Source: a virus (Duplodnaviria; Heunggongvirae; Uroviricota; Caudoviricetes). Taken from it: 64,000 nt of DNA. The DNA lies in the IMG/VR virus record IMGVR_UViG_3300032214_000615; one strand, given 5' to 3'. How positions within the stretch are numbered: position 1 is the stretch's first letter; each line of letters starts with the position of its first letter. The notes below the pieces were generated by a model, which saw only the letters and a program-made list of their open reading frames with translations, made no database searches and was not told the DNA's origin. Shown here piece after piece: positions 11,675-60,700 of the stretch. Position numbers and translations under genes: made by a program.

Positions 11675-13096
11675 ATGAAATACATAATATCTTTTATCAA
11701 AAATACAACTGACGAACACGTTGAACAGTATATGTTGGCGAATAATATTCAAGTTTTAGAACACTTGAAAAATTTAGATCACATTTACTTAACAGAGACT
11801 GACACAGTGCCCCCTCCAGACAACAATGTAGACTACATTGTTGAAAGTGAGCTAACAAAAATTACATTGGTATCCAATAATTGTGCTAGCATACAAACAG
11901 AAACTGATGAAAATTGGTGGAAACTGTCTACGTTGAATATTGATGAGTTTGATAGCACTGGAGTGTATCATTGTAAAAATGTAACTCCTGTTAATGTTTA
12001 TGTAATGGATAGTGGACTAAATCACTCACACAGCGAATTCTCGGGAATAAACGTGGAAAATGTTTATACTTATGATGAATCCTACAGTGATGAGAGTGGT
12101 CACGGCACCGCGGTATCGTCGCTAATAGCAGGCAATACGCTAAGCTTGGCTAATGTAAATCTTAAAGTTGTGAAAGTACTTGGTACAAAGGATACTTATC
12201 TAGTTGATTTATTGCGTGGATTAGACGCTATTATTGGATCAGCAGTCAACAGCGAATACATTTCCATAGTAAACATTAGCTGGGTCATGCCAAAGTTTAC
12301 ATTCTTTGAAAATCAACTTGAAAAGCTGTTTGATAAAAATATTTTAGTAGTCTGCGCGGCTGGAAATGCTGATATGGATATAGCGTTTGTTAGTCCCGCT
12401 TCAATGAATAACGCAATTTGCGTAGGCGCATATGATGAATATTTTAGACCCTGTAATTATTCGGACTATACTGGAGAACTATCAACAATATCTAGTTGGA
12501 GTAATTACGGATCAATAAATGTCTGGGCGCCAGGCTCAAACATAAAAGTGGCTAATATTGCTGACCAATATTCAATAGCTGGCGGAACATCTTTGGCATC
12601 TGCTATACACGCGGCTAGCGTTGCTTACGCACTTGGAAATTATTACAATATGGGTTCAGTTCCACTACGTAGCAACTTTAACTTCTATATGAGCGTGGTG
12701 TCTACCTTATCTGGCGTCAATTCCGGATTAATTGATTTTAGACACAGTTATGGACAATATAGTAATATTTCTACTGCTAGAACTAGCTTGGTCAAATCAC
12801 AAGTAAATCAATCAACTGACGTACTTATGGCACCAAATTCTTCTAATTTCTCTGTTAAAAATAATGGCGTGACTTTTGTAAAATGTATTCTCACCTCTTC
12901 TATAAAAGATGTAAGCATATCTGGATTGCCAGATGGACTATCTCTTACTGACGGTTGGATAATAGGAAAACCAACAATAGAATTTCCAGAGGACGAATCG
13001 GTAAAACAGTTAAATTTTGATTGTGTAATACAGTTCACTGTTATGAATCAAACGGAACCACAATCATTGCCAATTAAAGTTATTGTTAGAAGGTAA
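11675..13096 (+). CDS. Subtilisin-like serine protease (peptidase S8) with a C-terminal Ig-like (He_PIG) domain; probable virion-associated enzyme
   Basis: Catalytic motifs in order: VYVMDSGLNHSH (Asp), SGHGTAVSSLIAG (His), VVCAAGNAD (oxyanion Asn), GGTSLASAIHAASVAYA (Ser). C-terminal ISGLPDGLSLTDGWIIGKPT matches the Ig-like repeat of the fiber genes. Confidence 0.8.
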   Translation: MKYIISFIKNTTDEHVEQYMLANNIQVLEHLKNLDHIYLTETDTVPPPDNNVDYIVESELTKITLVSNNCASIQTETDENWWKLSTLNIDEFDSTGVYHCKNVTPVNVYVMDSGLNHSHSEFSGINVENVYTYDESYSDESGHGTAVSSLIAGNTLSLANVNLKVVKVLGTKDTYLVDLLRGLDAIIGSAVNSEYISIVNISWVMPKFTFFENQLEKLFDKNILVVCAAGNADMDIAFVSPASMNNAICVGAYDEYFRPCNYSDYTGELSTISSWSNYGSINVWAPGSNIKVANIADQYSIAGGTSLASAIHAASVAYALGNYYNMGSVPLRSNFNFYMSVVSTLSGVNSGLIDFRHSYGQYSNISTARTSLVKSQVNQSTDVLMAPNSSNFSVKNNGVTFVKCILTSSIKDVSISGLPDGLSLTDGWIIGKPTIEFPEDESVKQLNFDCVIQFTVMNQTEPQSLPIKVIVRR

Positions 13097-15098: not shown

Positions 15099-15467
15099 AT
15101 GATTAAAAAAATATTAGTGGCGTTCCTATTCTGCTTAGCAAGCACCATAGCCAACGCCAACGCATTCAAAGTAAATAGAGAATTAGCGTGTAACACACTA
15201 TCCGAGATAGCAAAAATTCTAAATGAGTTTGATGAAAAGTATGTTTGGCAAGGAAAAAATTCTCAAAAATTGCAGACAATGTTGGTAGTCAATACTAAAT
15301 CTCAAACCTGGACTTTAGTTATGACTGATGGTCAATTGGCTTGCGTGCTTGATTCTGGCGAAGGATTTCTGTTGCCAGGGCAATCAGAAAAAAAATCTGA
15401 AGTAAAACCACAAGCAGACAAGAAAAAAGATTCTAAGAATTTAGTTGATATTAACTTTGTTCAGTAG
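15099..15467 (+). CDS. Secreted protein (Sec signal peptide)
   Basis: MIKKILVAFLFCLASTIANANA signal peptide, strong RBS AAGGAG 7 nt upstream, Lys-rich C-terminus. Confidence 0.55.
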   Translation: MIKKILVAFLFCLASTIANANAFKVNRELACNTLSEIAKILNEFDEKYVWQGKNSQKLQTMLVVNTKSQTWTLVMTDGQLACVLDSGEGFLLPGQSEKKSEVKPQADKKKDSKNLVDINFVQ

Positions 15468-16290
15468 AACGTTTACGATTTTTATAAGCCCACAGTAATA
15501 GCGGTAGTACTATAGTACTGACAATCCACTGCCAGTACTTGCTAAACCACGCAACGATAATTTGTGTGGCGGTAATTTCTATCTCTACGGTTTTCTTAAA
15601 TGTTTTTATTTGATACTCGGTTTCTTCATGATCTAGTTTTATAATAGCCACTATACCAACATCTATTTTATGTTTGCCAACTGACTTTGGTTTAAGTGTC
15701 CATAACCAGGTTGTATTATCGGTTCTATTTAAAATTTGACGTTCTGGGGTTACAGCTTTTACTTCAAAGTCGGGAGCTGTTAATGTGACTGCCACAGTTC
15801 TAGTAACAAACACAGGAGCAGCAAATTGCTTACCACTCTCACTTAAATCAAGTGCTAACTTGTTGGCTTCTTTTACTAAACTTATTAATAATTCAACACG
15901 AACATCGTCGGTTATGTTAGCCTGCTCCGGGATGCTAAGTGCCGTGTTTGCGTTTAGTAATTGCTTTTTGAATTCATCATCATAGTCTATTGATGGTGTT
16001 ATGACAGTAGGTATTTTTGGTTGATTCTTTTTTGAAGCCAGTACTAATCGTTCTCTATTGTTTATTTTTGGTTCTGTTACCGTCGGCGATGATGTCATCG
16101 GTGCTGGTGGCGGTGGGGGTAGAATCAATACTGTTGTCCTTGAAGGATTCGTCATAGCGGGAGCAGCGGCTGTAACTGGCTCAGAAATCTTTTCTTCTAC
16201 TGCTGAATACTCGGTGATTGTCGCTCTTTCGTACTGAGCGCAGCTTGCTACAGCCAGTGATATTCCAATTGCCAGTAGTAATAGTTTCAT
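15451..16290 (-). CDS. Membrane-anchored lipoprotein-like protein with Pro-rich linker and C-terminal TM helix
   Basis: Lipoprotein-type N-terminus MKLLLLAIGISLAVASCAQ (lipobox-like ASC), PPPPPAPMTSSP linker, C-terminal IVAWFSKYWQWIVSTIVLPLLLWAY. Convergent with, and overlapping, the previous gene. Confidence 0.5.
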   Translation of the reverse strand: MKLLLLAIGISLAVASCAQYERATITEYSAVEEKISEPVTAAAPAMTNPSRTTVLILPPPPPAPMTSSPTVTEPKINNRERLVLASKKNQPKIPTVITPSIDYDDEFKKQLLNANTALSIPEQANITDDVRVELLISLVKEANKLALDLSESGKQFAAPVFVTRTVAVTLTAPDFEVKAVTPERQILNRTDNTTWLWTLKPKSVGKHKIDVGIVAIIKLDHEETEYQIKTFKKTVEIEITATQIIVAWFSKYWQWIVSTIVLPLLLWAYKNRKRSTEQS

Positions 16291-30256: not shown

Positions 30257-31696
30257 ATGCGCGCACGAGAAATACTAACAGAAACCGTTGAAGAGCAACA
30301 AAACATTGTAACAATGGCTAAAAACATAATTAAATGGCACTCAGAAAAAATAGGCGATATGTCGTCTCTATTAAAAAATAGAAATAATATATCCTCTCAA
30401 TTATACAATGAATCAGAAGATGATGATATTTCAGACGACGAATTACTTTCAATAATGAATCGTGCTAGGAACAAAGCCAAGAAATCAGGAATTGATGATA
30501 TTGATATCTCAGACGACGAATTACTCGCCATTATGAACAAAAATAAAATGGCGAAGTTTGATTATGATAATTGGTTAAACAGGCCTATACGTCTAATTGA
30601 TGTAGTCGGTTCTGGCCCGTGGACGCCAACTGTTAACGATTGGTTAAGCACAAATCCTACAATAATATTTGCCACAGAAGACAATTCTTCTTTGAAAATT
30701 AGAAAGGACGCATTACAAAAATTTTGGGGATGGTGGGATTCTACGCTTAATCATATTGTTATTAACTGCGCGATGCGGCGACCGGTTTCTTCTTATCTAT
30801 CGACGATTGTTCATGAGCTTCAACACGGGTTGGATTATTATAAGTCTAATTCTCTTGCAGGACAACGCTCTCTTGCAGGACGAGGTGGATCAGCAACACG
30901 AGCCAAACAAGAAAAAGAGGACATCTCAACTATAATAGCGGCATTCAAAAACGCAATAGATAGAATTCCAAGTTCCGGGCTTTACATCAAAGATATTATT
31001 ACTTCAGACTCGTTACAATCAACAATCTTTAAAAATCTTGTAAATGATCCCGAGATTGCTTCTATGAAAATAGAATCGCCAGAGAGTGAATACTCAGATG
31101 AAATGCAGGCGGATCGTTATCTTGATCTTGATATTGATAACAAGTCCGGTACGTATCTAATGTTTTACTGGGTAATTGAAGCGTTGCTAATTGGTTCAAC
31201 TAAAGATTTTCTAACAAAACTAGAAAATACTTTAAATGAATATCGTAATTCATACTATAAACCTAGAGCCGGCTATAGTAACGCAGTAAAACAAGGCTCT
31301 CTTGAATTAGATAAAAACCGCAGCGAATATCTGAGTAAAAATCATGAAATAAATGCCAGAATTTCTCAAGCATTTCACGCTATTATTGAACGTCTAACTC
31401 AACAAAATTTTAAAGGTTATTCAAAAAATAAAAAAACAGCAGAACTACAGCAGAAAGAAATATCCAACGTTGTTAACGCAGTTTATAGTAGTTACCATAT
31501 TAATGGTAGTTTATTTCCGGAACGAATTCGCGAAGAAAGACTTAGACGATTACAAAGAAGACTTCAGCAGTATATATTGGCTCATTTTCCGGAAAATAGT
31601 AACATCATTCCTAAGGCCATCATTCCGCGACGTAATGATGACGTTAGAAAATTACTCTCGCTATTAGGCCCAGAAGGTTTAAAAAATATAAAATAA
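30257..31696 (+). CDS. Putative zincin-like metallopeptidase (single HExxH)
   Basis: STIVHELQHGLDYY. Also acidic repeated ISDDELLSIMNR / ISDDELLAIMNK units near the N-terminus. Supported by one motif only. Confidence 0.3.
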   Translation: MRAREILTETVEEQQNIVTMAKNIIKWHSEKIGDMSSLLKNRNNISSQLYNESEDDDISDDELLSIMNRARNKAKKSGIDDIDISDDELLAIMNKNKMAKFDYDNWLNRPIRLIDVVGSGPWTPTVNDWLSTNPTIIFATEDNSSLKIRKDALQKFWGWWDSTLNHIVINCAMRRPVSSYLSTIVHELQHGLDYYKSNSLAGQRSLAGRGGSATRAKQEKEDISTIIAAFKNAIDRIPSSGLYIKDIITSDSLQSTIFKNLVNDPEIASMKIESPESEYSDEMQADRYLDLDIDNKSGTYLMFYWVIEALLIGSTKDFLTKLENTLNEYRNSYYKPRAGYSNAVKQGSLELDKNRSEYLSKNHEINARISQAFHAIIERLTQQNFKGYSKNKKTAELQQKEISNVVNAVYSSYHINGSLFPERIREERLRRLQRRLQQYILAHFPENSNIIPKAIIPRRNDDVRKLLSLLGPEGLKNIK

Positions 31697-31697
31697 T

Positions 31698-32204
31698 ATG
31701 AAAATATCCGACTTTCGCATACACAGTACTGATAAATTGGACAGCATTCTCGCGAAATGCTGCGAGATGATTTTGACAAAACAACGAGAGGGCTCGGAAT
31801 ATTGGGGAATGGTTGGTGCTTGTGTATTGGACATGGAGAATCGCGCTGTATATGGTGTTAATCACGCTATGGACGATGGTAAACGCAAACACGCAGAACG
31901 AGCGGCAATTGATAATTACCGAGAAAAGTACGGTGACAATTTGGAACACTGTATTATTATCACTACTCTTAGTCCCTGTAGTGAACCATTAGACGAACGC
32001 TGGGGCGATAGTTGTACCGACTTGATAAATGAAATTGGAATACATAAAGTCTATTGCGGATACAAAGATCCAAGTCAAGATCATAGCGAAACTTATCTAC
32101 ACAAACACTTTCATGTCAAGTGTACTCGCAACCAAAAGTTGAACGAACTGTGTAAACGGTTTGCCGACACCTTTTTGAATTCGGATGACACCGATCACAG
32201 TTGA
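31698..32204 (+). CDS. CDA-fold zinc deaminase (cytidine/deoxycytidylate/RibD-like)
   Basis: HAERAAIDNY (H[AC]E) and TLSPCSEPLDERWGDSC (PC-x9-C, long spacing as in RibD/guanine deaminases). Confidence 0.5.
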   Translation: MKISDFRIHSTDKLDSILAKCCEMILTKQREGSEYWGMVGACVLDMENRAVYGVNHAMDDGKRKHAERAAIDNYREKYGDNLEHCIIITTLSPCSEPLDERWGDSCTDLINEIGIHKVYCGYKDPSQDHSETYLHKHFHVKCTRNQKLNELCKRFADTFLNSDDTDHS

Positions 32205-32272
32205 TCAAGCCAAAATAAGTTGACATTTAGCGCAGGTGTAGTAAGATAGATAATCTACTACAAGGAGTAATA

Positions 32273-32554
32273 ATGTCTGATACTGAAAATTTTGATACCC
32301 CAGTTACATTTAGCGGCGACCAAAAGAAGAAGCTAACTCAAATCATTAACGAAGGCTGCCAGGTGTTACACGAGGTTGAGACACTGAATGAAGGGTTGAA
32401 TGAAACCATTAAAGCAATTGCCGAAGAGATGAATATCAAATCATCGGTCTTGAAGAAAGCAATCAAGATCGCTCATCGTGCTGAGTTTCACAAAACACAA
32501 AAAGAACAAGAACTGCTAGAAACCATTCTGACAACTGTTGGAAAAACACTATGA
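32273..32554 (+). CDS. Small helical protein, possibly GapR/DUF2312-like DNA-binding protein
   Basis: Strong RBS AAGGAG. LKKAIKIAHRAEFHKTQKEQELLETILTTVG resembles the DUF2312 C-terminal pattern; weak. Confidence 0.35.
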   Translation: MSDTENFDTPVTFSGDQKKKLTQIINEGCQVLHEVETLNEGLNETIKAIAEEMNIKSSVLKKAIKIAHRAEFHKTQKEQELLETILTTVGKTL

Positions 32555-32814
32555 GTGATTCAATGTCTGCTCATCGCGACGATCTTCGTGAGTGGAATGA
32601 ATTTTGTGAAAAAACTAAAATTCCACTTAGTTGGAGAGTCTATAGTCCGGACTCAATGTGGGCAAGAAGATTTCATAATGAACGTGGGTTAGTGGGACGA
32701 GAATTAATGTTGGCTGTAAAGCAAGAACTAGAAACTATAGCTCTTAAACAGAAACACGCCACTCAGCAACAAGAGCTTAAGCAGTTAATTGAATTGGAAA
32801 AGAAGTATCAATGA
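32551..32814 (+). CDS. Hypothetical small protein
   Basis: 87 aa, translationally coupled on both sides (ATGA overlaps). Confidence 0.4.
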   Translation: MSDSMSAHRDDLREWNEFCEKTKIPLSWRVYSPDSMWARRFHNERGLVGRELMLAVKQELETIALKQKHATQQQELKQLIELEKKYQ

Positions 32815-34427
32815 GTTATGTGGATGCCATCTTCGACAGAGAGCGTGATACAATTCACGTTGTAGAACGTTCGCCCACCGGCAAACGTGTATATCAGCAG
32901 TATCCTGCCAATTATGTTTTTTATTATGATGACCCCAAGGGCAAGCATCGTAGTGTAAATCTTGATCCAGTCAGCAGATTCAGCAGTCGCAAGCGCGGTG
33001 AGTTCATGAAAGAACTCAAGATTCACAGTGGCAAGCGTACATATGAAAGCGATTTGAATCCAATATTCAGATGCTTGGCTGACAATTATTTGGACGCAGA
33101 GTCTCCGCGACTACATATCTGCGTTTTTGACATTGAAACAGACTTCAATCCTGATCGTGGATTCGCTCCTACTACTGATCCATTCAACCCAGTAACCGCA
33201 ATCTCGTTGTACTTGGATTGGTTGGGACAGTTAATAACACTGTGTATTCCGCCAAAACATATGTCGCAGGAAACTGCTGCTGAAATAGCAGGTCAGTTTG
33301 ATAACACTTTTGTGTTTGAAAATGAAACTGATATGTTCAATGTGTTTTTTGAGTTGATTGATGACGCTGATGTACTAACTGGCTGGAACAGTAGTGGATA
33401 CGATATTCCCTATATGGTCAATCGTGTTACTCGTGTAATGAGTAAGGATGATACACGCAGATTCTGTTTGCTAAATCAACTGCCAAAGCTACGCAAGTAT
33501 GTTATGTTTGATCAAGAACAGGAAACGTATGATCTAAGTGGTCGCATTCATATGGACTACTTGGAGCTATACAAGAAGTATAACTATGAAAGTCGTCATA
33601 GTTATAAGCTTGATTTCATTGGTGAAATGGAAGTAGGAGAGAAGAAAGTTCAGTATGAAGGAACTCTAGATCAACTGTACAACAAAGATTGGCGCAAGTT
33701 CTTAGAGTACAATCGTCAAGACACACTGTTGCTATTCAAGATTCATGACAAGCTAAAGTTCTTGGATCTTGCCAATAGCATCGCGCATCAAAATACCGTA
33801 TTGCTACAAACTGTCATGGGCAGTGTGGCAATGATTGAACAAGCCGTTATTAATGAAGCTCACGCTCGTGGGTTAGTAGTACCAGACAAAAGGAAAGTAA
33901 ATGAAGACACAGAACCAAAAGCAGCCGGTGCCTATGTTGCTACGCCCAAGCGGGGCATGCACGAGTGGATCGCGGCGGTTGACATCAACAGTCTCTACCC
34001 ATCAGCTATCCGCGCTCTTAACATGGCCCCGGAAACCATTATTGGGCAACTCAGACCAACACTCACAGACAAGTACATCAGTGACAAAACATCTGCTGGC
34101 GTAGAATTCGCACACGCGTGGGAAGGTTTGTTCGGCACACTGGAATACACTAGTGTGATGAATCAAGAGCGTGGCACTATGATTACCATTGATTGGGAGC
34201 GTGGTGGCAGTGAAACTGCCAGTGCGGCTGAGATTTGGAAGCTAATCTTTGACAGCAATCAACCCTGGATGATCAGTGCCAACGGAACAATATTCACTTA
34301 TGAGCGAGAGGGTATCATTCCTGGTCTACTCACCAAGTGGTACACTGAGCGTAAAGAAATTCAAAAGCAACTCAAAGAGGCCTCAAGCGTTATTTATGGA
34401 ATTGAATTGCCAAAAGACATGTTATGA
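32811..34427 (+). CDS. Family-B DNA polymerase, fragment 1 of 3 (N-terminal, 3'-5' exonuclease and palm motif A)
   Basis: Exo I ICVFDIETDF, exo II-like LTGWNSSGYDIPYM, motif A AAVDINSLYPSAIRALN. Ends at a stop before motif B. Confidence 0.8.
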   Translation: MSYVDAIFDRERDTIHVVERSPTGKRVYQQYPANYVFYYDDPKGKHRSVNLDPVSRFSSRKRGEFMKELKIHSGKRTYESDLNPIFRCLADNYLDAESPRLHICVFDIETDFNPDRGFAPTTDPFNPVTAISLYLDWLGQLITLCIPPKHMSQETAAEIAGQFDNTFVFENETDMFNVFFELIDDADVLTGWNSSGYDIPYMVNRVTRVMSKDDTRRFCLLNQLPKLRKYVMFDQEQETYDLSGRIHMDYLELYKKYNYESRHSYKLDFIGEMEVGEKKVQYEGTLDQLYNKDWRKFLEYNRQDTLLLFKIHDKLKFLDLANSIAHQNTVLLQTVMGSVAMIEQAVINEAHARGLVVPDKRKVNEDTEPKAAGAYVATPKRGMHEWIAAVDINSLYPSAIRALNMAPETIIGQLRPTLTDKYISDKTSAGVEFAHAWEGLFGTLEYTSVMNQERGTMITIDWERGGSETASAAEIWKLIFDSNQPWMISANGTIFTYEREGIIPGLLTKWYTERKEIQKQLKEASSVIYGIELPKDML

Positions 34428-35291
34428 CTTCAATCTTCTTCTGATAACTTCATCACTCCATTGATTGATTGTATTAGAATCTTCAAAGATTAGATTGAAG
34501 TTTAGCTCAGTGTCGCTAAGTCTTAGTATGTTATAACCTAACTCTCTTGCAGAATTAGTTTTTAACAAGTCTCTGTTTATTTGTTTTGGTTTAGAATGCC
34601 AGAACTCGCCGTCAACTTCTATTAATAGATTCAATGATGGAATATAAAAATCAAAAACCCATGAGCATTTTTCTGCGACTACTATGAATTGTGAAATATA
34701 TTCAATATTATTTTTCAATAAAAACTCAGCGCATTCAAGTTCTATAGAGGTGAATGATGATTTAGTTTTGTTGGTTGAAAGATACGCTGATCTTTTCAGG
34801 GAGCGATTCATTCTCTGTTCGTTCGTTAAATTTAGAAGACGACCTTTATTATGATGTCCATTTTTACCATTTGAGTTTCCCATCATGAGCTTTGATCTTG
34901 CCAAGCGTTGTTCTACTGTCCATTTTGGCGGTCTCCATCCGTTTTCCAAACGAGCCTTCATGTTTTCTTTTGATATTTCTGCCATATTTATTTTGTATTC
35001 TTCGGTATGTGACCCCCATGATTTACCTGTTCTTGATTCCGAAAGTTTCTTTTTGTGCTCTTCGGATTTTGGTCTGTCAGTCAGAGCAATAATAACCTTG
35101 TTTTTACTTTCTTCATTATGCATGGGATTAGCTTCGCGAAATGCTTTGCCGTATGAGTGTCTTAGCTCTGAGCTAATAGTCTCTGCGTCTGGATAAAGTG
35201 ATGAATATTCTGTGGTAGTCAAATCATGTGTGTTGAGATGAGTTCCAGTAATTCTTTTAAAAAGTTTTTTACAAATTTCACAAGTTATCAT
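34422..35291 (-). CDS. Free-standing homing-endonuclease-like protein: N-terminal zinc finger plus C-terminal Vsr-like (PD-(D/E)xK) nuclease domain, inserted between PolB fragments 1 and 2 on the opposite strand
   Basis: CEICKKLFKRITGTHLNTH zinc finger. C-terminal LLIEVDGEFWHSKPKQINRDLLKTNSARELGYNILRLSDTE matches Vsr (GCFWHxH ... GWRVLIVWE). Confidence 0.65.
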   Translation of the reverse strand: MITCEICKKLFKRITGTHLNTHDLTTTEYSSLYPDAETISSELRHSYGKAFREANPMHNEESKNKVIIALTDRPKSEEHKKKLSESRTGKSWGSHTEEYKINMAEISKENMKARLENGWRPPKWTVEQRLARSKLMMGNSNGKNGHHNKGRLLNLTNEQRMNRSLKRSAYLSTNKTKSSFTSIELECAEFLLKNNIEYISQFIVVAEKCSWVFDFYIPSLNLLIEVDGEFWHSKPKQINRDLLKTNSARELGYNILRLSDTELNFNLIFEDSNTINQWSDEVIRRRLKS

Positions 35292-35332
35292 TTTTAATTC
35301 TTATTTAGTAAAGCTCCATAAATATATTTATC

Positions 35333-36061
35333 ATGAATCTACAAAATTTTAATTTATCCACGGTTAAGAATTTCATAGACGCTAGAGACACAAATGGTCT
35401 AAAAACATATATCTCTGAGTTCGGCCTAGAAATTAGAGAAGGTAAAATTTTGCCAATGACAGAACATTTAGCAGCATGGCAAAATTTACACGATTTTTAT
35501 GACAAGCGTCAGTTAGTTCGTAAGATTTTATTAAATTCGGCATACGGTGCCCTTCTCAATACACACATGCGATTCTACGACATTCGTATTGGTCAGAGTA
35601 CTACGCTCAATGGTCGTCAAATCGTCAAGCACATGAGTGCTCACTTGAATGAGCAAATTGCTGGTGAATACGATCACAACGGAGAAGCAATCGTGTACGG
35701 GGATAGTGTAACCGCGGACACGATCATTCGTACTGATACAGGATCTATTACTATCGAGAAACTATTCAATATGTCATTAGAAAAATGTATCAGTGATGAT
35801 AAAGAATATGGGGTATGGAATGATGCAAAGGTGCTGGGGTTCAACTCAGAAACTATGGAGCCTATAACAGCAAAAATTTCATATGTCATGAGACATAAAA
35901 CAAAGAAAAAATTATATAGAATTACCACCGAAAACGGTAAACAAGTAACGGTCACCGAAGATCACAGTCTAATTGTAGATAGAGATGGATTTTTAGTTGA
36001 ATGTAAACCTACCGATATTAGAGACACTGACTTAATCATCACTTTTGATCCTTCTGCATAA
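35333..36061 (+). CDS. Family-B DNA polymerase fragment 2 (motif B through YGD of motif C) fused to a split-intein N-terminal half
   Basis: Motif B KILLNSAYGALLN. VYGD followed directly by SVTADTIIRTDTG (intein block A) and TEDHSLIV (block B), then a stop. The intein part starts at 35705. Confidence 0.8.
   Translation: MNLQNFNLSTVKNFIDARDTNGLKTYISEFGLEIREGKILPMTEHLAAWQNLHDFYDKRQLVRKILLNSAYGALLNTHMRFYDIRIGQSTTLNGRQIVKHMSAHLNEQIAGEYDHNGEAIVYGDSVTADTIIRTDTGSITIEKLFNMSLEKCISDDKEYGVWNDAKVLGFNSETMEPITAKISYVMRHKTKKKLYRITTENGKQVTVTEDHSLIVDRDGFLVECKPTDIRDTDLIITFDPSA
35705..36061 (+). mobile_element. Split intein, N-terminal half (IntN, 118 aa) inserted after YGD of polymerase motif C
   Basis: Ser1 + blocks A/B, terminated by a stop; sits in a different reading frame from the IntC gene. 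Confidence 0.75.
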
Positions 36062-36090
36062 ATAATCTATGGAGATAGAAGTATCAGCAT

Positions 36091-37050
36091 ATGATTAAAT
36101 GTTTAGAATGCGGATTTGAGTCCAGCAGACTTCAATGGACTCATTTCAAATATAAGTGTACCGGACGTTTTCAAAATGGAACGGAATATTTGAAGGCGTA
36201 TCCGCATGCAAAAGTAGTTGATACTGAGTTGGCTTCTAAAACTACACTAACAAAATCAAAATTCATTGAAAAATATGGTGAAAAAGAAGGAATTGAAAAA
36301 TGGGATGCTTATAGAAATAAGCAAGCGTACTCAAATTCCTTTGAGTACAAACAACAAAAATATGGGTGGACTCAACAGCAATTTGATGAATATAACTCAA
36401 ATAGAGCGGTGACGTTAGAAAAGTGTATCCAGCGACACGGAGAGAACGAGGGCGTTCATGTATGGAATGAATATGTTCAAAAGCAAGCATATACAAAAAC
36501 GCAAGCATACTTTATTGAGAAATATGGAGAAAAAATAGGAACAGAAAAATTTTCTCAAGTAAATTTTCTGAAAAGTGCAGCCGTAAATCCCAAAACTATG
36601 GCAGAGGTAAAAAACATATCGGTTGACGACGCTGTTGATATTATTCTTAACAGAAAGAATATGTTCAGATATACGTCAAATCTAGAAAAGGAATTTGTAG
36701 AGAAACTAGAACATCGCATTGGCCCAATGCAACATACGAGCGTCAATAAACCATATGGAAAATGGTCAACGTTGCTGAATTCATACGTGGTATTTGATGT
36801 AAAACATAATGATTGTGTGATAGAATTCAACGGAGATTACTGGCATTGTAATCCAAAGTTATACGAATCGATTGATACTGGCCCTGGAAATAAAACAGCT
36901 CAAGAAATTTGGGATAGGGATGCTAAAAAAATTCAAACAGCGAGAAATCTTGGATTTAGAGTACTGACTGTGTGGGAATCAGATTACATAAAGAACAAAC
37001 AAAAAATTATAGAAGAGGTGATTGAATGGATGCTGAATGGACAAAAGTAA
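36091..37050 (+). CDS. Free-standing homing-endonuclease-like protein (zinc finger + repeated YGxxxG modules + Vsr-like nuclease) located between the two halves of the split intein
   Basis: CLECGFESSRLQWTHFKYKC. Repeats FIEKYGEKEGIEKWDAY / FIEKYGEKIGTEKFSQV. C-terminal VIEFNGDYWHCNPKLY...LGFRVLTVWESDY (Vsr motifs). Confidence 0.7.
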   Translation: MIKCLECGFESSRLQWTHFKYKCTGRFQNGTEYLKAYPHAKVVDTELASKTTLTKSKFIEKYGEKEGIEKWDAYRNKQAYSNSFEYKQQKYGWTQQQFDEYNSNRAVTLEKCIQRHGENEGVHVWNEYVQKQAYTKTQAYFIEKYGEKIGTEKFSQVNFLKSAAVNPKTMAEVKNISVDDAVDIILNRKNMFRYTSNLEKEFVEKLEHRIGPMQHTSVNKPYGKWSTLLNSYVVFDVKHNDCVIEFNGDYWHCNPKLYESIDTGPGNKTAQEIWDRDAKKIQTARNLGFRVLTVWESDYIKNKQKIIEEVIEWMLNGQK

Positions 37051-37151
37051 GTAAAATTGAATGCTTGGGTGAAGTAGATGACTATGTGTATGATATAAGC
37101 ATAGAGAATCAAGACCCATTCTTTTTTGCCAATGATATTTTGGTTCATAAT
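37026..37151 (+). mobile_element. Split intein, C-terminal half (IntC)
   Basis: Ends HN, then the +1 Thr of the extein. Confidence 0.75.
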
Positions 37152-38015
37152 ACAGATAGCTGCTATTTCAGTGCATATCCTACTCTCAAGCAGGATATTG
37201 ACAGCCGCAAGATTGAGTGGAATAAAGACGTAGCTATTCAGTTATACGATCAAATAGCAGAGAATACCAATGCCAGTTTCCCACAGTTTATGGAACGAGC
37301 GTTTCACTGTCCACGAAAGAATGGCGCTATTATCAAAGCCGGGCGTGAATTGGTAGCTGATCGTGGAATCTTTATGACCAAGAAGCGCTATGCTGTTAAC
37401 ATCTATGACAAAGAGGGTAAGCGACTAGACGTTAACGGTAAACGTGGTAAGATCAAGGCTATGGGTCTTGATCTAAAACGCGCAGACACTCCAAAATACA
37501 TACAAAACTTTTTGTTTGATATTTTGGAAGATGTACTCGCTGGCGTCAGTCGCGTCGAGATTGTCGAGAAAATTAAAGCATTCAAAATAAATCTGGAACA
37601 ACAGCCTGCTTGGACAAAGGGCAGTCCCAAGGGAGTTAATAAGCTAACCTGGTATGGCGAACAGCAAGAAAAGGCTGATAAAAAAATCAATATGCCAGGG
37701 CACGTTCGCGCTAGTTTAAATTGGAATTACTTGAGAACTTTGAACAATGATACGTACAGTCAAAAAATAGTTGACGGTATGAAAATCGTAGTATGTAAGT
37801 TAAAAGATAATTTACTAGGAATGACCAGTATTGCGTATCCAACTGATGAGCTAAGACTGCCTTCTTGGTTCTTGGAACTTCCTTTTGATGATCGTGGTAT
37901 GGTTCAAACTCTTATTGATGAAAAGATAGAAAATTTATTGGGAGTGTTAAAGTGGAACATATCCAAAGACATTAATACCAGTAGCACTTTTAATTCATTA
38001 TTTACATTTTCTTAA
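37026..38015 (+). CDS. Split-intein C-terminal half (42 aa) fused to family-B DNA polymerase fragment 3 (TDS of motif C and thumb)
   Basis: GEVDDYVYDISIENQDPFFFANDILVHN (blocks F/G) immediately followed by TDSCYFSAY, which completes YGD|TDS. Confidence 0.8.
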   Translation: MDAEWTKVSKIECLGEVDDYVYDISIENQDPFFFANDILVHNTDSCYFSAYPTLKQDIDSRKIEWNKDVAIQLYDQIAENTNASFPQFMERAFHCPRKNGAIIKAGRELVADRGIFMTKKRYAVNIYDKEGKRLDVNGKRGKIKAMGLDLKRADTPKYIQNFLFDILEDVLAGVSRVEIVEKIKAFKINLEQQPAWTKGSPKGVNKLTWYGEQQEKADKKINMPGHVRASLNWNYLRTLNNDTYSQKIVDGMKIVVCKLKDNLLGMTSIAYPTDELRLPSWFLELPFDDRGMVQTLIDEKIENLLGVLKWNISKDINTSSTFNSLFTFS

Positions 38016-38083
38016 TTTGGCAACATAAGCTATTGACATTCTCTATATTAAAGAATTAGAATTACACAACACAAGGAAAAATT

Positions 38084-38812
38084 ATGCGTGATTACTTAGA
38101 TGATATTATTCAACACACTTGTAGCCTAGGCAACATTGATTTAATCAAAATCGTTGGCGATCAAAAAGAAACTCTGATCAAATCTATCACTGAAGATAGG
38201 TTTGTAATACTGAACGGTAAGTTTAAAATCCCCAATACTCAATTTGCGGGTGTATTTGGTATGCCTAACTTGACAAAACTAAAAACAATTTTGGGGTTTG
38301 ACGAGTACGACGAACACGCTACTATTCAAATGACACATCAGCAACAAAATGGAATCGCGATTCCTGCTGCTATTCACTTTGAAACCAAAAACAACGACTT
38401 CATCAACGATTATCGTTTAATGGGTCAAGCAATCGTAGAAGATAAAATTCGCGATGTAAAGTTTCAGGGCGCTACTTGGAGCGTTGACTTTGAGCCAAAA
38501 GTAGCAAGTGTAATTAGGCTTAAGAAGCAAGCGCAAGCTAATAGTGAAGAAACGCTGTTCACAGTAAAAACCGAAAATGGTAATCTAAAGCTGTTTTTTG
38601 GTAATATGAGCACTCATAGTGGTAACTTTATTTTTGAAAGCAATGTTTCCGGGGCTTTAAATCGCAGCTGGCAGTGGCCCATTCGTCCGTTTCTATCAAT
38701 ACTGGATTTGCTAGGCGACAAGCGAGTTTATATTAGCGATCAGGGTGCCATGAGAATCACCGTTGATAGCGGCTTAATTGATTACGAATATTTGCTACCA
38801 GCACAGGCTTAA
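38084..38812 (+). CDS. Hypothetical protein; possible replisome accessory protein (sliding-clamp-sized, next to polymerase)
   Basis: 242 aa acidic protein with a good RBS. The assignment rests on size and position only. Confidence 0.3.
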   Translation: MRDYLDDIIQHTCSLGNIDLIKIVGDQKETLIKSITEDRFVILNGKFKIPNTQFAGVFGMPNLTKLKTILGFDEYDEHATIQMTHQQQNGIAIPAAIHFETKNNDFINDYRLMGQAIVEDKIRDVKFQGATWSVDFEPKVASVIRLKKQAQANSEETLFTVKTENGNLKLFFGNMSTHSGNFIFESNVSGALNRSWQWPIRPFLSILDLLGDKRVYISDQGAMRITVDSGLIDYEYLLPAQA

Positions 38813-38815
38813 CAA

Positions 38816-39172
38816 ATGATTAAAAATATTCAATCCACGAGTAATCATCTTGCGATCAATACTAATCCTGCTTCGTATGTATCAGCCAATCCTAACTCTG
38901 GCGCACTGAGATTTAATACTATCACTCAAACACTTGAAGTATTTGATGGATATAATTGGATATCTTTTTCGTCATACACAACGATTGATCTAACTGTCAC
39001 AGCACAATCTGCTATAGATTGGGCAATTAAAAAGATGACTCGTGAGCAAGAATATGCTATACTAGCATCACAATACAGTTCTGTACAAGACGCTCTTGAC
39101 AATTTGGTCAAGGCACAAGAGCGTCTTGATATCATTGTAGCCTTGACCAAAAAAGAGGAAAGTCATGCTTGA
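38816..39172 (+). CDS. Hypothetical protein
   Basis: 118 aa ORF. Confidence 0.4.
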   Translation: MIKNIQSTSNHLAINTNPASYVSANPNSGALRFNTITQTLEVFDGYNWISFSSYTTIDLTVTAQSAIDWAIKKMTREQEYAILASQYSSVQDALDNLVKAQERLDIIVALTKKEESHA

Positions 39173-39383
39173 AAATCGTATTAAACATTTAGAGCAAATT
39201 CATCGCGATCTTGATAATAAAATCACTGATCTAGATAAAAATCATCCGCACGTTGATGAAACTCATCTTCACGAGATGAAAAAACAACGTCTCTCTGTTA
39301 GAGATGAGTTGAGTAATCTGCGCCGCAAGCTATTTGAAATGACCAGTGGTCGTGAAACTGAAAACTGGGCAGATGAACGATAA
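39165..39383 (+). CDS. DUF465 (YdcH-like) family small protein
   Basis: RBS AAGAGGAAAG. KHLEQIHRDLDNKITDLDKNHPHVDETHLHEMKKQRLSVRDELSNL parallels E. coli YdcH (HFAKLFDEHNELDHEI...KKLALKDEIYQL). Confidence 0.55.
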   Translation: MLENRIKHLEQIHRDLDNKITDLDKNHPHVDETHLHEMKKQRLSVRDELSNLRRKLFEMTSGRETENWADER

Positions 39384-39747
39384 CACTATTATGTTTGAAG
39401 CTAACAGAAAAGCGGCTAATTACGAGCGCACAATTAGAGTTTTGCGCAGTAGCAGACGCAGCGTATCAGTGTCTCATAAACTAGACAACGTTGATGTTTT
39501 TGTTAAGATTGAATCAAAGAGCAATGATCAATTTGACTTTGACGATATAAAGAAAACAATCAATACAGTGTTTAACGAATTAGACTTTTCAGTAGCTACA
39601 ATAATGGAACGAACTGACGCTCTGTTTGTTTTGCTTAGCGAACAATACCATGACAATAAAATTAGCATCACCGTCACTGATAATGATGGGTGCGGACTAA
39701 CGACCAACTATTACAACAGTATCCCTCAACAACTTATTAAGATTTAA
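39373..39747 (+). CDS. Hypothetical protein (start uncertain)
   Basis: ORF 39346-39747; internal Met at 39373 or 39391 is more compatible with the upstream stop. Confidence 0.35.
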   Translation: MNDNTIMFEANRKAANYERTIRVLRSSRRSVSVSHKLDNVDVFVKIESKSNDQFDFDDIKKTINTVFNELDFSVATIMERTDALFVLLSEQYHDNKISITVTDNDGCGLTTNYYNSIPQQLIKI

Positions 39748-56336: not shown

Positions 56337-56501
56337 ATGAGCACTTTCGTTTTTAGAAGCCCGCAAAGCGAGGTTCGTGTCACTGTGATTGCTGCCGATC
56401 ATGCCCGTGCTACACAGGAGTTGGTACAGCGTCTTGAGCACCTTGAACAGATGGGCATCGTGATCAGCCCTGAAGATTTTGAATTGGTAAGTGCCTACTA
56501 A
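56337..56501 (+). CDS. Hypothetical small protein
   Basis: 54 aa, RBS CAGGAG, preceded by cassette 4. Confidence 0.4.
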   Translation: MSTFVFRSPQSEVRVTVIAADHARATQELVQRLEHLEQMGIVISPEDFELVSAY

Positions 56502-56511
56502 GGAGTACACG

Positions 56512-56682
56512 ATGAAAACCTGGGAAATCTGTGTAGAGGATGGACCACATCAATGCTTTTATGTAGAGGCACAGGCCCGCACTCTTGATGAGGCTATCCA
56601 CAAAGTTCGGAGTGATATGAAAAAGCAGAAGCCTTGGCTTCATATCCTGATTAGTCACGCCGCCTGTAGAGAAATCAAATAA
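56512..56682 (+). CDS. Hypothetical small protein
   Basis: RBS AAGGAG before ATG 56512. Confidence 0.4.
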   Translation: MKTWEICVEDGPHQCFYVEAQARTLDEAIHKVRSDMKKQKPWLHILISHAACREIK

Positions 56683-56690
56683 CCTTCCAC

Positions 56691-56719
56691 TTGACAATAA
56701 ATCCGAATCCTGATATACT
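56691..56719 (+). promoter_or_regulatory. Promoter cassette 5 (TTGACA-N17-TATACT)
   Basis: Identical to cassette 4 over 55 nt. Confidence 0.65.
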
Positions 56720-56748
56720 GTATTCAAGTTAGAAAACAGGAGCACAAG

Positions 56749-56973
56749 ATGAAGGTCACAATCAATCCGTTCCAAACTCGTCAAATCGGTAGCAACATTG
56801 TTGAGGTGTGGGTTGGTACTCCGGGCGAGGCAGAAAGCGAATTTGTCTGCTCCGTTGGTATCAACCTCGTGCCCCAACTGATTGCCACACTGCGGAAGAT
56901 TGAGGGCAAGCGAAAGCCTATTGATCCCCGAGATAAACTGATCAAGTCTGTGGATATCATTGGAGATAGATAA
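56749..56973 (+). CDS. Hypothetical small protein
   Basis: 74 aa, RBS CAGGAG, preceded by cassette 5. Confidence 0.45.
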   Translation: MKVTINPFQTRQIGSNIVEVWVGTPGEAESEFVCSVGINLVPQLIATLRKIEGKRKPIDPRDKLIKSVDIIGDR

Positions 56974-57206
56974 TGAACGAACGAATCTTTGAACTGGCCA
57001 ACAAGGCTGGATTTGAAAATGGGCATCAGGATCGCAACGGCAATTCATTATCAGGTGAATTAGAAAAGTTCGCCGAGTTGTTGATTCGGGAATGTATCGA
57101 ACAATGCGAAAAGCAAGAGTATGACTACTGGCGTGCTCCGGAAGATCAAGAATTCACGCCGCAGGATTGTGCTGATGCGCTTGCTCGACATTTTGGAGTG
57201 AAATGA
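56973..57206 (+). CDS. MNERI-family small protein (paralog 2)
   Basis: MNERIFELANKAG...EKFAELLIRECIEQCEK. Confidence 0.5.
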   Translation: MNERIFELANKAGFENGHQDRNGNSLSGELEKFAELLIRECIEQCEKQEYDYWRAPEDQEFTPQDCADALARHFGVK

Positions 57207-57475
57207 TGATGGAACGAATTAAAGAACTTGCCGAGCAGGCTGGTATGACCGACGATAAGTTTGGTATGTTCTTTGCCAAAGACAAGCACGATGAAGACGG
57301 TGTTGACTTGGAAAAGTTCGCTCGGTTGATTGCCAAAGAATGTGCGGTTTTGGCTATGACCGAACACCATAGCACCAGTCCTGCTGAATACGAGGAGATG
57401 GAGCCATACGAGCAAGGCTGCGATGATACTGCTAGTGCCATCAGCGGCAAGATCCGTAGAATTTTCGGAGTTTAA
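57203..57475 (+). CDS. MNERI-family small protein (paralog 3, diverged)
   Basis: MMMERIKELAEQAG...EKFARLIAKECA. Confidence 0.45.
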   Translation: MMMERIKELAEQAGMTDDKFGMFFAKDKHDEDGVDLEKFARLIAKECAVLAMTEHHSTSPAEYEEMEPYEQGCDDTASAISGKIRRIFGV

Positions 57476-57477
57476 GA

Positions 57478-57663
57478 ATGAAAGCAGAATTTGAAATGAC
57501 CTTGTTTGATGACGAGGAAACAGCAAAGAACTTGCCAATCCTGAATCGTCTCGAAGCATTGTTTGATCACTCTAAAAACAATTTGCCCGAAGAATACTTT
57601 TGGTTCAGCGACACTTTGCCGGTGGGTTCTCGGGTAAAAATTACATTTGAGGTAATAGAATGA
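57478..57663 (+). CDS. Hypothetical small protein
   Basis: 61 aa ORF. Confidence 0.35.
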   Translation: MKAEFEMTLFDDEETAKNLPILNRLEALFDHSKNNLPEEYFWFSDTLPVGSRVKITFEVIE

Positions 57664-60352: not shown

Positions 60353-60700
60353 ATGAGTGGATATAATCTGCTAACAAAAATTCGCCGTCTTGAGGCTATT
60401 TGTGATAAAATGGGATTTATGTTATGTCATAGTAAACACGGATATCATCGTGAATTCGGTGATGTGATTGCCATCAAACCCAAGGATCAGGATAGTCTTC
60501 CGATCTACAGTCGTGACGCTGAACTTTTTGTTGGTACATTTGATCAACTTGAAATTTGGTTACAGGGTTTAATTTGGGCACGTGACTATGATCGTATGGT
60601 ATTTGGTAGTAAGCATGAATCAAATCGCGAACGTAAAGAACAAGATGTAAGAAATAAAAAATTAGTTAAAATTCTAACAGATGGAGCACAAGATGACTGA
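60353..60700 (+). CDS. Hypothetical protein
   Basis: 115 aa ORF. Confidence 0.4.
   Translation: MSGYNLLTKIRRLEAICDKMGFMLCHSKHGYHREFGDVIAIKPKDQDSLPIYSRDAELFVGTFDQLEIWLQGLIWARDYDRMVFGSKHESNRERKEQDVRNKKLVKILTDGAQDD

Follow-up and report, generated by a model that had tools for sequence, protein, structure and literature searches.

A jumbo-phage family-B DNA polymerase encoded in three pieces, with a split intein at one break and a putative homing-endonuclease gene in each gap

How can a replicative DNA polymerase be produced from a gene that is broken at two places, one of them inside a catalytic motif? The question is raised by the polB locus (positions 32811-38015) of a 64,000-nucleotide stretch, here called the window, of the virus record IMGVR_UViG_3300032214_000615 (IMG/VR; Caudoviricetes), in which a family-B DNA polymerase (PolB) is encoded as three polypeptides, each with its own start and stop codon. 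The reading favoured here, to which a probability of roughly 85% was given, is that the replicative PolB of a jumbo phage has been broken at two places with an endonuclease gene in each gap, that fragments 2 and 3 are trans-spliced, that fragment 1 joins them non-covalently, and that the endonucleases are selfish.

The locus consists of five intact open reading frames (ORFs; coordinates in Table 1, taken from the ORF list for 31500-39500). An earlier note, made from the sequence alone, had described polB as three ORFs with endonuclease genes in both gaps, and this layout was recovered. The first gap holds a homing-endonuclease gene, HEG1, that converges on the stop of fragment 1 with an overlap of 6 nt. 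The second holds HEG2, which stands between the N-terminal half of an intein (IntN), fused to fragment 2, and the C-terminal half (IntC), fused to fragment 3. Stop-to-start distances are ~905-909 bp at break 1 and 964 bp at break 2, with one complete endonuclease ORF in each. The three reading frames that had been assigned to the polymerase pieces were corrected to two, because fragments 1 and 3 are in phase (37026-32811 = 4215 = 3 x 1405).

ORFs in different phases could look like the product of frameshift errors, and the earlier note had named errors that merge the ORFs as grounds for abandoning its reading. The real gene would then be a single ORF, either plain or with an uninterrupted intein that bears the endonuclease, frameshifted by sequencing or assembly. 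No such errors were found. A contig of the separately built Logan assembly (L075) was 100% identical over 6729 bp of the locus, and exact copies of window proteins were found on several contigs, the longest of 341 kb. Each gap (905 bp and 964 bp) holds an entire endonuclease ORF, from start to stop codon, in one case on the opposite strand; a TAA codon closes IntN, and IntC is equipped with a separate GAGGTG Shine-Dalgarno sequence and ATG. The same split layout was also found at 41 IMG/VR loci, with the endonuclease frame varying. An artefact is effectively refuted and retains next to no probability.

The three pieces carry the features of a family-B polymerase of the T4/RB69 gp43 type, with Exo I-III and motifs A, B and C in collinear order. 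Fragment 1 runs from the N-terminal domain through the 3'-5' exonuclease (Exo I FDIE, Exo II NSSGYDIPY, Exo III YNRQD) and motif A (DINSLYPS) to the first finger helix, and stops at the fingers tip; it matched Pfam DNA_pol_B_exo1 (E=1e-23) and positions 12-143 of the DNA_pol_B profile. The extein of fragment 2 begins with a fingers-tip segment specific to the lineage (residues 1-54), continues with the second finger helix and its motif B (KILLNSAYG) and closes with the first half of motif C, ...VYGD; the ORF matched DNA_pol_B 146-234 followed by Intein_splicing 11-94. Fragment 3 matched Intein_splicing 117-155 followed by DNA_pol_B 274-342, and its extein opens with Thr+1 (TDSCYF), which completes motif C, and also holds KKRY and the thumb domain. 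Motif C is whole only once YGD is joined to TDS. On checking, all of these motifs were intact, as were YGD^S, TEDH and HN^TDS of the intein and its junctions (^ marks a junction). The assignment of exonuclease and motif A to fragment 1, of motif B and YGD to fragment 2 and of the completing TDSCYF to fragment 3 had already been made from the sequence, and the Pfam matches and motifs bear it out.

Alignment to T4/RB69 gp43, which had been suggested as a check, placed the pieces collinearly: fragment 1 residues 167-423 and 486-518 on RB69 189-443 and 454-486, fragment 2 residues 59-124 on RB69 555-621, and fragment 3 extein residues 72-231 on RB69 700-850. All three fragments were likewise collinear with the uninterrupted polymerases of the jumbo phage Phosso and of a Vibrio phage (1012 and 999 aa). 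Fragment 2 residues 9-125 aligned to Phosso 596-712; fragment 1 was 47% identical to the Phosso and PA5oct polymerases, and fragment 3 was 47% identical to Phosso 707-1012 and to the second PA5oct polymerase ORF.

Break 2 cuts through motif C at the point that corresponds to D621/T622 of RB69, and parts D621 from T622-D623. The 118-aa IntN starts with the nucleophile Ser1 (SVTADTII), contains an R63-H64 motif of the NX type and a TxxH block B (T84-E-D-H87), and ends ...ITFDPSA followed by the stop; the 42-aa IntC ends ...ILVHN^T, with the His-Asn and following nucleophile of a class 1 intein. Both sizes are those first noted. The profile search that had been proposed gave matches above the curated NCBIfam cut-offs for both halves (IntN: intein_Nterm TIGR01445, 55.4 bits, cut-off 24.5; IntC: intein_Cterm TIGR01443, 18.3 bits, cut-off 15.6); IntN also matched PF14890 at 44.3 bits (cut-off 35.8), and IntC covered positions 117-155 of the same profile. 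The NX motif of Ser1 inteins is a histidine preceded by Arg or Lys (Pasch et al., 2023; PMC10189870), and the window sequence YVMRHKT aligns with YIMKHTV of Aeromonas phage Aes123. The window intein is not strictly cysteine-free, with non-catalytic C28 and C100 in IntN and C13 in IntC.

The fused halves matched PDB 9HTH over residues 2-159 (E=2.5e-19), the weaker matches being other solved inteins. PDB 9HTH is a 173-aa chain deposited as a DNA-directed DNA polymerase; it was taken to be the Aes123 PolB1 intein because its aligned sequence matches the Aes123 gp43B1/B2 intein. IntN was 32% identical to that of Aes123 and 39% to that of PA5oct, and IntC 46-52% identical across Aes123 and PA5oct (PA5oct 52%). 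IntC identities rose to 67-95% for most IMG/VR relatives, with 60% in the most distant (L063), and the last ten IntC residues, FFANDILVHN, are the same in the window and in phage CP21. With a stop after IntN, an own start and stop for HEG2, and an own Shine-Dalgarno sequence and ATG for IntC, the arrangement is that of a split intein in a 'fractured gene', and HEG2 occupies the canonical endonuclease-insertion point between IntN and IntC. The earlier note's comparison with the fractured genes of marine metagenomes is upheld by this arrangement, which is the one of Dassa et al. (2009; PMC2677866).

Judged from its sequence, break 2 thus appears to be bridged by a genuine, naturally split class 1 intein of the Ser1/Thr+1 type. 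Trans-splicing in vitro has been reported for the Aes123 intein, which occurs in nature as an IntN of 120 aa and an IntC of 39 aa (PMC11923092), and for the CP21 PolB1, LCGC14 PolB2 (120/42 aa) and GOM-OPS-1 PolB2 inteins (PMC12707363). Since these homologous PolB split inteins trans-splice in vitro, the joining of fragments 2 and 3 by trans-splicing is well grounded and most likely.

The insertion site differs from that of these relatives. In the window it reads YGD^S...HN^TDS with Thr+1, two alignment columns upstream of the DTD^S site with Ser+1 that is found in native Aes123, CP21 and PA5oct/MIJ3 and in the LCGC14 and GOM-OPS-1 constructs (PMC12707363), the intein N-termini (SV...) being in register. 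Neither the window intein nor any of the 61 IMG/VR relatives that reach the C-junction is inserted between DTD and S with Ser+1. For DnaB, inteins at adjacent sites separated by two residues have been described (PMC4760082), and Ser1/Thr+1 inteins are already known as cis-splicing elements (PMC10189870). The shifted site with Thr+1 is a variant and brings no new principle.

Break 1 falls at about RB69 residue 506, in the variable tip of a fingers domain that we take to span RB69 residues 469-572, and has no intein. Fragment 1 closes with an in-frame stop and fragment 2 opens with an ATG, as in the intein-less gp43A/gp43B type of break. When polymerases spliced in silico were aligned with MAFFT, the break stood at column 650 for the window and at column 647 for Aes123 gp43A/gp43B1, within 3 columns. 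Fragment 1 residues 527-538 and fragment 2 residues 1-54 are missing from many uninterrupted relatives, and the break was therefore placed in a dispensable surface insertion; Phosso and PA5oct carry the segment within a contiguous gene.

Break 1 could in principle be repaired at the RNA level, with gap 1 being a group I or II intron that carries an endonuclease ORF and fragments 1 and 2 forming one chain. Group I introns do occur in motif B of four relatives (L048, L049, L054, L061) and of Aeromonas phage Aes517, ~200 nt downstream of the break. A permissive Rfam scan of 32000-38500 (both strands, E up to 1) returned no intron or ribozyme and no RF00028, its sole matches being two chance ones, one with a miRNA family and one with an sRNA family. 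The endonuclease ORF lies on the strand opposite to polB, an in-frame stop closes fragment 1 while the ATG of fragment 2 is in another phase, and the intron-bearing relatives still show the fingers-tip break as a separate feature. The intron reading of break 1 was rejected on the Rfam result and is exceedingly improbable.

The presence of a complete exonuclease domain on fragment 1 also allows for a different division of labour, in which the parts are never reassembled, fragment 1 acting as a stand-alone proofreading exonuclease and the spliced fragments 2-3 as an exonuclease-free polymerase core. Such independent function is implausible because the polymerase active site is divided between the parts and complete in neither, motif A, with its catalytic Asp and SLYPS, being carried by fragment 1 and motifs B and C by fragments 2 and 3. 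In addition, gp43A and gp43B of Aeromonas phage 25, split at an equivalent position, co-purify and are active together, as related in PMC2988022 with reference to Petrov et al. (2010). Only a slim chance was assigned to this alternative, and fragment 1 most likely binds the spliced fragment 2-3 chain non-covalently, by analogy with the phage 25 proteins.

HEG1 opens with a CxxC...HxxxH knuckle, which is followed by NUMOD3-like repeats and, at the C-terminus, by a Vsr-like/EDxHD core (FDF...IEVDGEFWH...RD). It matched PDB 3R3P, the catalytic domain of I-Bth0305I, at E=2.7e-7, Pfam DUF559 at 22.6 bits (cut-off 20.6), and Vsr, MTES_1575 and NUMOD3 (E=0.045) below threshold. Its PHROG matches phrog_559 and phrog_3339 are annotated as homing endonucleases, and tblastn gave 36% identity to the mobile intron protein of Bacillus phage 0305phi8-36, the intron ORF that corresponds to I-Bth0305I. 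The knuckle and the 3R3P match agree with the zinc-finger/Vsr-like gene on the minus strand that had been predicted for gap 1.

In HEG2 a CxxC...H...C knuckle at the N-terminus is followed by three helical YGxxxGxxKW repeats and, at the C-terminus, by the nuclease core (D236, E245, H252, D277, K280). HEG2 matched phrog_22677 (E=8e-56). Two proteins encoded between PolB split-intein halves, CP21_248 and the 'putative VSR endonuclease' of Aes123/Aes5xx, shared 34% identity with it (E=1e-33). A total of 533 metagenomic homologues were found, more than 100 of them full-length at 53-69% identity. E245, G248, H252, P255, K280 and W295 were invariant in alignments of 16 and of 40 sequences; D236 was fully conserved in the smaller set and almost fully in the larger, and D277 almost fully in both. 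A glutamate at the position of Vsr Phe62 is invariant in the Vsr-like endonuclease family of Dassa et al. (PMC2677866), and E245 occupies this position in HEG2. The HEG2-family profile gave marginal matches to PDB entries (Vsr E=0.007, I-Bth0305I E=0.087), and the fold was therefore settled by structure prediction and Foldseek. The AlphaFold2 model had a mean pLDDT of 90.2, and its top three PDB folds were Vsr (1CW0 and 1VSR, probability 1.0) and I-Bth0305I (3R3P, 0.97). Predicted fold, conserved residues and homology to annotated VSR endonucleases support HEG2 as a Vsr-like endonuclease, in agreement with the plus-strand gene of this kind first proposed between the intein halves. The Asp, the Glu at the Phe62 position and the His69 and Asp97 equivalents of the Vsr-like/EDxHD core are present in both HEG1 and HEG2; outside this core (27% identity over 67 aa), the resemblance between the two proteins is confined to an N-terminal MIxCxxC knuckle.

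Start signals were read directly from the sequence, and their function is put forward on that basis. The ATG of fragment 1 overlaps the stop of the upstream ORF (ATGA), and fragment 2 shares a palindromic AT-rich spacer of 41 nt with the divergent HEG1. HEG2 is preceded by GGAG and CATAAATA, the latter overlapping the stop codon of fragment 2, and a third Vsr-like endonuclease gene of the window, HEG3, by TATAAATA and GGGAG. The GAGGTG Shine-Dalgarno sequence and ATG of fragment 3 lie inside the coding sequence of HEG2, the last 25 nt of which overlap the fragment 3 ORF. Positions 37020-37050 are dual-coding: GAA TGG of HEG2, which includes the nearly invariant Trp313, supplies the ATG of the IntC-fragment 3 ORF (A TG G), and the conservation of Trp313 in the HEG2 family may be partly due to the overlapping start codon. 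Scans with promoter and terminator consensus sequences were uninformative (17 against 21.4 expected and 3 against 3.6 in shuffled sequence). Late-promoter strings resembling TATAAATA upstream of HEG2, HEG3 and the spacer were not enriched, with 6 on the plus strand window-wide, about the chance number, and no promoter is claimed for them on that account.

The relatives of the locus were collected by scanning IMG/VR with fragment 2, which gave 68 loci that were dissected by tblastn and stop-codon checks. The peptide patterns of the scan included intein peptides; intein-free alleles are consequently under-sampled and no invasion frequency is given. Fragments 1-2 plus IntN, a full-length HEG2 homologue (~52% identical) and IntC plus fragment 3 were found at 41 of the 68 loci, at 35 of which fragments 1 and 2 are in one ORF; in these 41 the endonuclease 3' end overlaps the start of IntC, as in the window. 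Only a remnant of the endonuclease was left at 12 loci (L011 6553-6730, L018-L021, L036, L038, L039, L041, L045, L060 and L069), with the 3' end kept in 11, and all but L038 retain the stretch bearing the Shine-Dalgarno sequence and ATG of the IntC-fragment 3 ORF. This retention fits the position of the fragment 3 start signals within the 3' end of HEG2. A further five loci are still split without an endonuclease gene (including L042 4246-4299 and L064-L067 at about 6571-6620), three have a contiguous mini-intein (L048, L052, L070), and seven run off the contig end. The intein starts with S after a YGD-type motif at 68 of 68 loci, and S...(H/K)N^TDS was read at 61 of the 61 that reach the C-junction (KN in L048).

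The fragment 1/2 break is shared by nine loci, and in one of them (L021) the pieces are 37 nt apart and in the same frame. The break-1 gaps examined in relatives hold varied endonucleases in either orientation. The group I introns of motif B (KILLNS^xYG) matched RF00028 at 71-102 bits and occur in four loci that share break 1 and in Aes517. Insertions of 0.9-1.3 kb near fragment 1 residue 110 or 195, in the exonuclease domain, were also seen in some relatives; the one in L047 encodes a 244-aa HNH endonuclease and the others have no obvious ORF.

Between L049 and L071, fragment 1 is 79% and the fragment 3 extein 82% identical, whereas IntN and IntC are 100% and the endonuclease 99% identical (cassette around 6600-8040 in L049 and around 6247-7680 in L071); this pattern points to recent lateral transfer of the whole split-intein cassette. 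In the closest relative, the remnant locus L011, fragment 1 is 90% identical to that of the window and the flanking exteins 78-95%, while its IntN is only 65% identical. Among 21 dereplicated loci, pairwise identity of IntN was weakly correlated with that of fragment 1 (Spearman 0.39), against 0.77 for the fragment 3 extein.

Table 1. Coordinates of the polB locus and HEG3 in the window, and of break-1 gap genes, group I introns and exonuclease-domain insertions in related loci
Feature	Sequence	Coordinates	Strand	Remarks
polB fragment 1 (gp43A equivalent)	Window	32811-34427	+	538 aa, intact ORF
HEG1 (free-standing, gap 1)	Window	34422-35291	-	289 aa, intact ORF
HEG1/fragment 2 divergent spacer	Window	35292-35332		41 nt, AT-rich palindrome ATAAATATATTTAT
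polB fragment 2 incl. IntN, whole ORF	Window	35333-36061	+	242 aa
polB fragment 2 extein	Window	35333-35704	+	124 aa
IntN	Window	35705-36061	+	118 aa plus stop
HEG2 (free-standing, gap 2)	Window	36091-37050	+	319 aa, Vsr-like
polB fragment 3 incl. IntC, whole ORF	Window	37026-38015	+	329 aa
IntC	Window	37026-37151	+	42 aa, MDAEWTKVSKIECLGEVDDYVYDISIENQDPFFFANDILVHN
polB fragment 3 extein	Window	37152-38015	+	287 aa plus stop
HEG3 (third Vsr-like endonuclease gene)	Window	59031-60041	+	336 aa
Break-1 gap gene	L054		-	EDxHD
Break-1 gap gene	L056/L057			EDxHD
Break-1 gap gene	L060			EDxHD
Break-1 gap gene	L049			HNH
Break-1 gap gene	L061			HNH
Break-1 gap gene	L070			571-aa Hef-like
Break-1 gap gene	L048		-	Zinc-repeat plus Vsr
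Group I intron	L049	6175-6389
Group I intron	L061	5803-6019
Group I intron	L048	6148-6361
Group I intron	L054	6184-6396
Group I intron	L074 (Aes517)	2721-2966
Exonuclease-domain insertion	L047	3492-4394
Exonuclease-domain insertion	L053	3606-4912
Exonuclease-domain insertion	L061	1934-3072
Exonuclease-domain insertion	L064, L066, L067	3822-4975

The relatives also bear on whether the locus is a decaying pseudogene, the polymerase having been inactivated by mobile elements and replication being carried out by another phage or host polymerase. Jumbo phages sometimes carry more than one polymerase, and the genome, of which 64 kb were in view, measures at least 341 kb. Set against this, every catalytic motif of exonuclease and polymerase and every splicing block of the intein is intact, the fragments are 60-90% identical to those of relatives with no internal stop codons, and the split state persists in lineages whose polymerases are ~50% identical, which indicates purifying selection on the pieces. 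Decay was accordingly considered very unlikely.

In the three-piece polymerase favoured here, IntN and IntC would associate and ligate fragments 2 and 3, as expected from homology to Aes123, CP21 and LCGC14. The product would be a 411-aa gp43B-like chain in which motif C is restored to YGDTDS, with the junction peptide AIVYGDTDSCYFSAYPTLK, and this chain would bind fragment 1 non-covalently to give the holoenzyme, on the model of gp43A/gp43B from Aeromonas phage 25. The endonucleases, as selfish elements, would cut endonuclease-free polB alleles during co-infection and be copied in by recombinational repair; homing of this kind is suggested by the near-identical intein-endonuclease cassette in two relatives with diverged polymerases.

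Several points weigh against this proposal. The window intein is only 32-46% identical to the splicing-tested Aes123 intein, and both Thr+1 and the site two residues upstream depart from the splicing-tested members of the family. Fragment 2 lacks a clear Shine-Dalgarno sequence. At the sequence level the match of HEG2 to Vsr is below threshold (E about 0.01), HEG1 is a predicted endonuclease that lies antisense to polB, and both HEG1 and HEG2 are putative homing enzymes. A second polymerase may also be encoded elsewhere in the genome, beyond the 64 kb of at least 341 kb that were seen.

A bolder view is that the cassette is more than a parasite, with polymerase chemistry and expression depending on it and the endonuclease kept as a weapon between phages beyond homing. 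The more than 500 homologues of the intact endonuclease are well conserved. With the intein moved by two codons in this clade, the two catalytic aspartates of motif C (D^TD) are on separate polypeptides, which would make polymerase chemistry strictly dependent on Thr+1 trans-splicing, and no Ser1/Thr+1 split PolB intein is among those characterised in the split-intein literature cited here. The start signals of fragment 3 lie in the endonuclease frame and the 3' stretch is kept, by which polymerase expression would be hard-wired to endonuclease-derived sequence. This view is considered doubtful.

The novelty of the locus that the earlier note implied does not hold, as the same layout is already annotated in the Aeromonas phages Aes123 and Aes517 and a split PolB intein of jumbo phages has been published (PMC6892783). 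In Aes123, Aes144, Aes508, Aes509, Aes512, Aes517 and AS-gz, gene 43 is arranged as gp43A, gp43B1 (N-intein), a putative VSR endonuclease and gp43B2 (C-intein); the records used were GenBank JN377899 and JN377904, with the annotation wording 'includes putative N-intein' and 'includes putative C-intein'. As in the window, the polymerase of this group is in three pieces, with an intein-less break at the fingers tip, a split intein in motif C that is homologous over its full length, and a Vsr-like endonuclease gene between the halves that is on the same strand and overlaps the C-half ORF. Unlike the window, these phages are Tevenvirinae with ~160-kb genomes, and their polymerase is only distantly related to that of the window, a jumbo phage; their intein is at DTD^S with Ser+1, against YGD^TDS with Thr+1, two residues upstream, in the window. 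The first gap is empty in Aes123 and holds endonuclease remnants (truncated GIY-YIG) in Aes517, whereas gap 1 of the window has an intact antisense EDxHD gene. Aes517 gp43B1 also has a group I intron in motif B that the window lacks.

For MIJ3/PA5oct (Wroclawvirus; Imam et al., 2019, PMC6892783), a PolB in separate pieces was described, together with a split intein and an endonuclease placed between them. These phages are among the closest cultured relatives of the window (47% for the polymerase) and have a homologous intein with an endonuclease gene between the halves. Their polymerase is in two pieces, fragments 1 and 2 being contiguous, the intein site is YGDTD^S with Ser+1, and the endonuclease is a 560-aa 'Hef-like' protein with a nuclease core that resembles HEG1 rather than HEG2.

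In the fractured genes of marine metagenomes, split-intein halves surround a free-standing GIY-YIG or Vsr-like gene (Dassa et al., 2009; PMC2677866). Break 2 is like these in arrangement and in endonuclease family, including the Glu at the Vsr Phe62 position, and the start signals of the downstream half likewise lie within or next to the endonuclease gene. The family-B polymerase is not among the eight host proteins of that study, which cites the gp43 split (PMC2677866), and its loci are mostly fragmentary contigs, unlike the window.

For break 1 the nearest precedent is in the Aeromonas phages 44RR and 25, which, as described in PMC2988022 and the work of Petrov et al. (2006, 2010) to which it refers, have a gp43A/gp43B split, accompanied by a seg-like free-standing endonuclease and by a group I intron. 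From those descriptions they have in common with the window an intein-less break, two subunits that would have to associate and a free-standing endonuclease gene in the gap, and with its relatives the motif-B intron. The endonuclease so described is of the GIY-YIG type and on the sense strand, against the antisense EDxHD HEG1, and a split intein, which the window has, goes without mention in the sections of this literature that concern them.

Among nucleases, the EDxHD type member I-Bth0305I (3R3P; PMC3239194) and E. coli Vsr (1CW0, 1VSR) resemble HEG1 and HEG2 in core fold and catalytic residues. I-Bth0305I is encoded in a recA intron, whereas HEG1 and HEG2 stand alone as genes; Vsr serves as a nickase in repair and plays no part in homing, and the N-terminal DNA-binding regions are unrelated to those of HEG1 and HEG2.

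Among inteins, the characterised cysteine-independent split inteins CP21 PolB1, LCGC14 PolB2 and GOM-OPS-1 PolB2 and also the split Pol intein of Nanoarchaeum equitans are like that of the window in Ser1, the Lys/Arg-His NX motif, the split at the endonuclease position and the similar half sizes, and are unlike it in having Ser+1 at DTD^S. An endonuclease gene is missing between the GOM-OPS-1 coding segments, which only 47 nt separate, and unlinked loci are reported for the N. equitans halves (PMC2677866). The deposited CP21 record (L072, NC_019507.1 175225-179333) has many frameshifts in the polB region, with about ten short 'DNA polymerase' coding sequences, and the published coordinates of the CP21 PolB1 split intein derive from that region. 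Because of these frameshifts, Aes123 and not CP21 was used as the reference. What is specific to the window is the site two codons upstream with Thr+1, the intact antisense EDxHD gene in gap 1, and its lineage of uncultured jumbo phages.

The third endonuclease copy that had been reported at 59 kb was identified as a paralogue of HEG2 (HEG3, Table 1). It was 36% identical to HEG2 over 59 aa (tblastn, E=3e-9) and matched phrog_22677 (E=2e-12) and TIGR00632 vsr (E=3e-5). HEG3 was rejected as the marker of a third fractured gene: it is intergenic and splits no gene, since the upstream RNA ligase gene is complete. This RNA ligase gene (PHA02142 OB-fold plus RNA_ligase, 57942-58976) and an ATP-dependent DNA ligase gene (61791-63113) flank HEG3 and an ORF with a WYL_2 domain (60681-61094).

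A megablast search against 50,697 phage records gave no match; the window has thus no close sequenced relative among them, and its context was taken from protein-level searches. The nearest polymerases (~47% identity) are those of jumbo phages, namely Sinorhizobium Phosso, the Pseudomonas PA5oct/MIJ3 group, Agrobacterium Atu_ph07 and a Vibrio phage. The window is part of an uncultured jumbo phage with a source contig of at least 341 kb, and other genes of large phages in it encode an FG-GAP giant protein, a Peptidase_G2 domain protein, a subtilase, a dCMP deaminase, an RNA ligase and a DNA ligase. The plus-strand ORF 10011-11669 (552 aa) has an LCCL domain and a sub-threshold C-terminal match to Hint_2/Hom_end_hint (residues 392-502) with no C-extein after it; this C-terminal region may be a bacterial-intein-like autoprocessing domain. 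The subtilase gene (11675-13096) follows directly. Three isolated minus-strand ORFs (15451-16290, 56464-57048 and 57146-57559) stand in an otherwise plus-strand segment and had no Pfam match; they may be further mobile or morons-type insertions. ORF 15451-16290, the one of the three that was scanned against PHROGs, had no match there and, with no family match, was rejected as a further endonuclease.

The locus is a jumbo-phage example of an essential replication gene that, as read here, has been broken by homing endonucleases and would be repaired at the protein level. Its relatives provide a decay series for the gene-breaking model of Dassa et al., from mini-intein and full endonuclease to 3' remnant and none, and the fingers tip of PolB emerges as a hotspot colonised by at least four endonuclease types. 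The intein is a natural, putatively functional Ser1/Thr+1 split intein and kin of the engineering tools Aes123, CP21 and LCGC14; it could serve as an additional cysteine-independent ligation tool, possibly an orthogonal one. The understanding of such systems is left unchanged, and the main value of the locus lies in the evolutionary series among its relatives and in a possible new cysteine-independent split intein.

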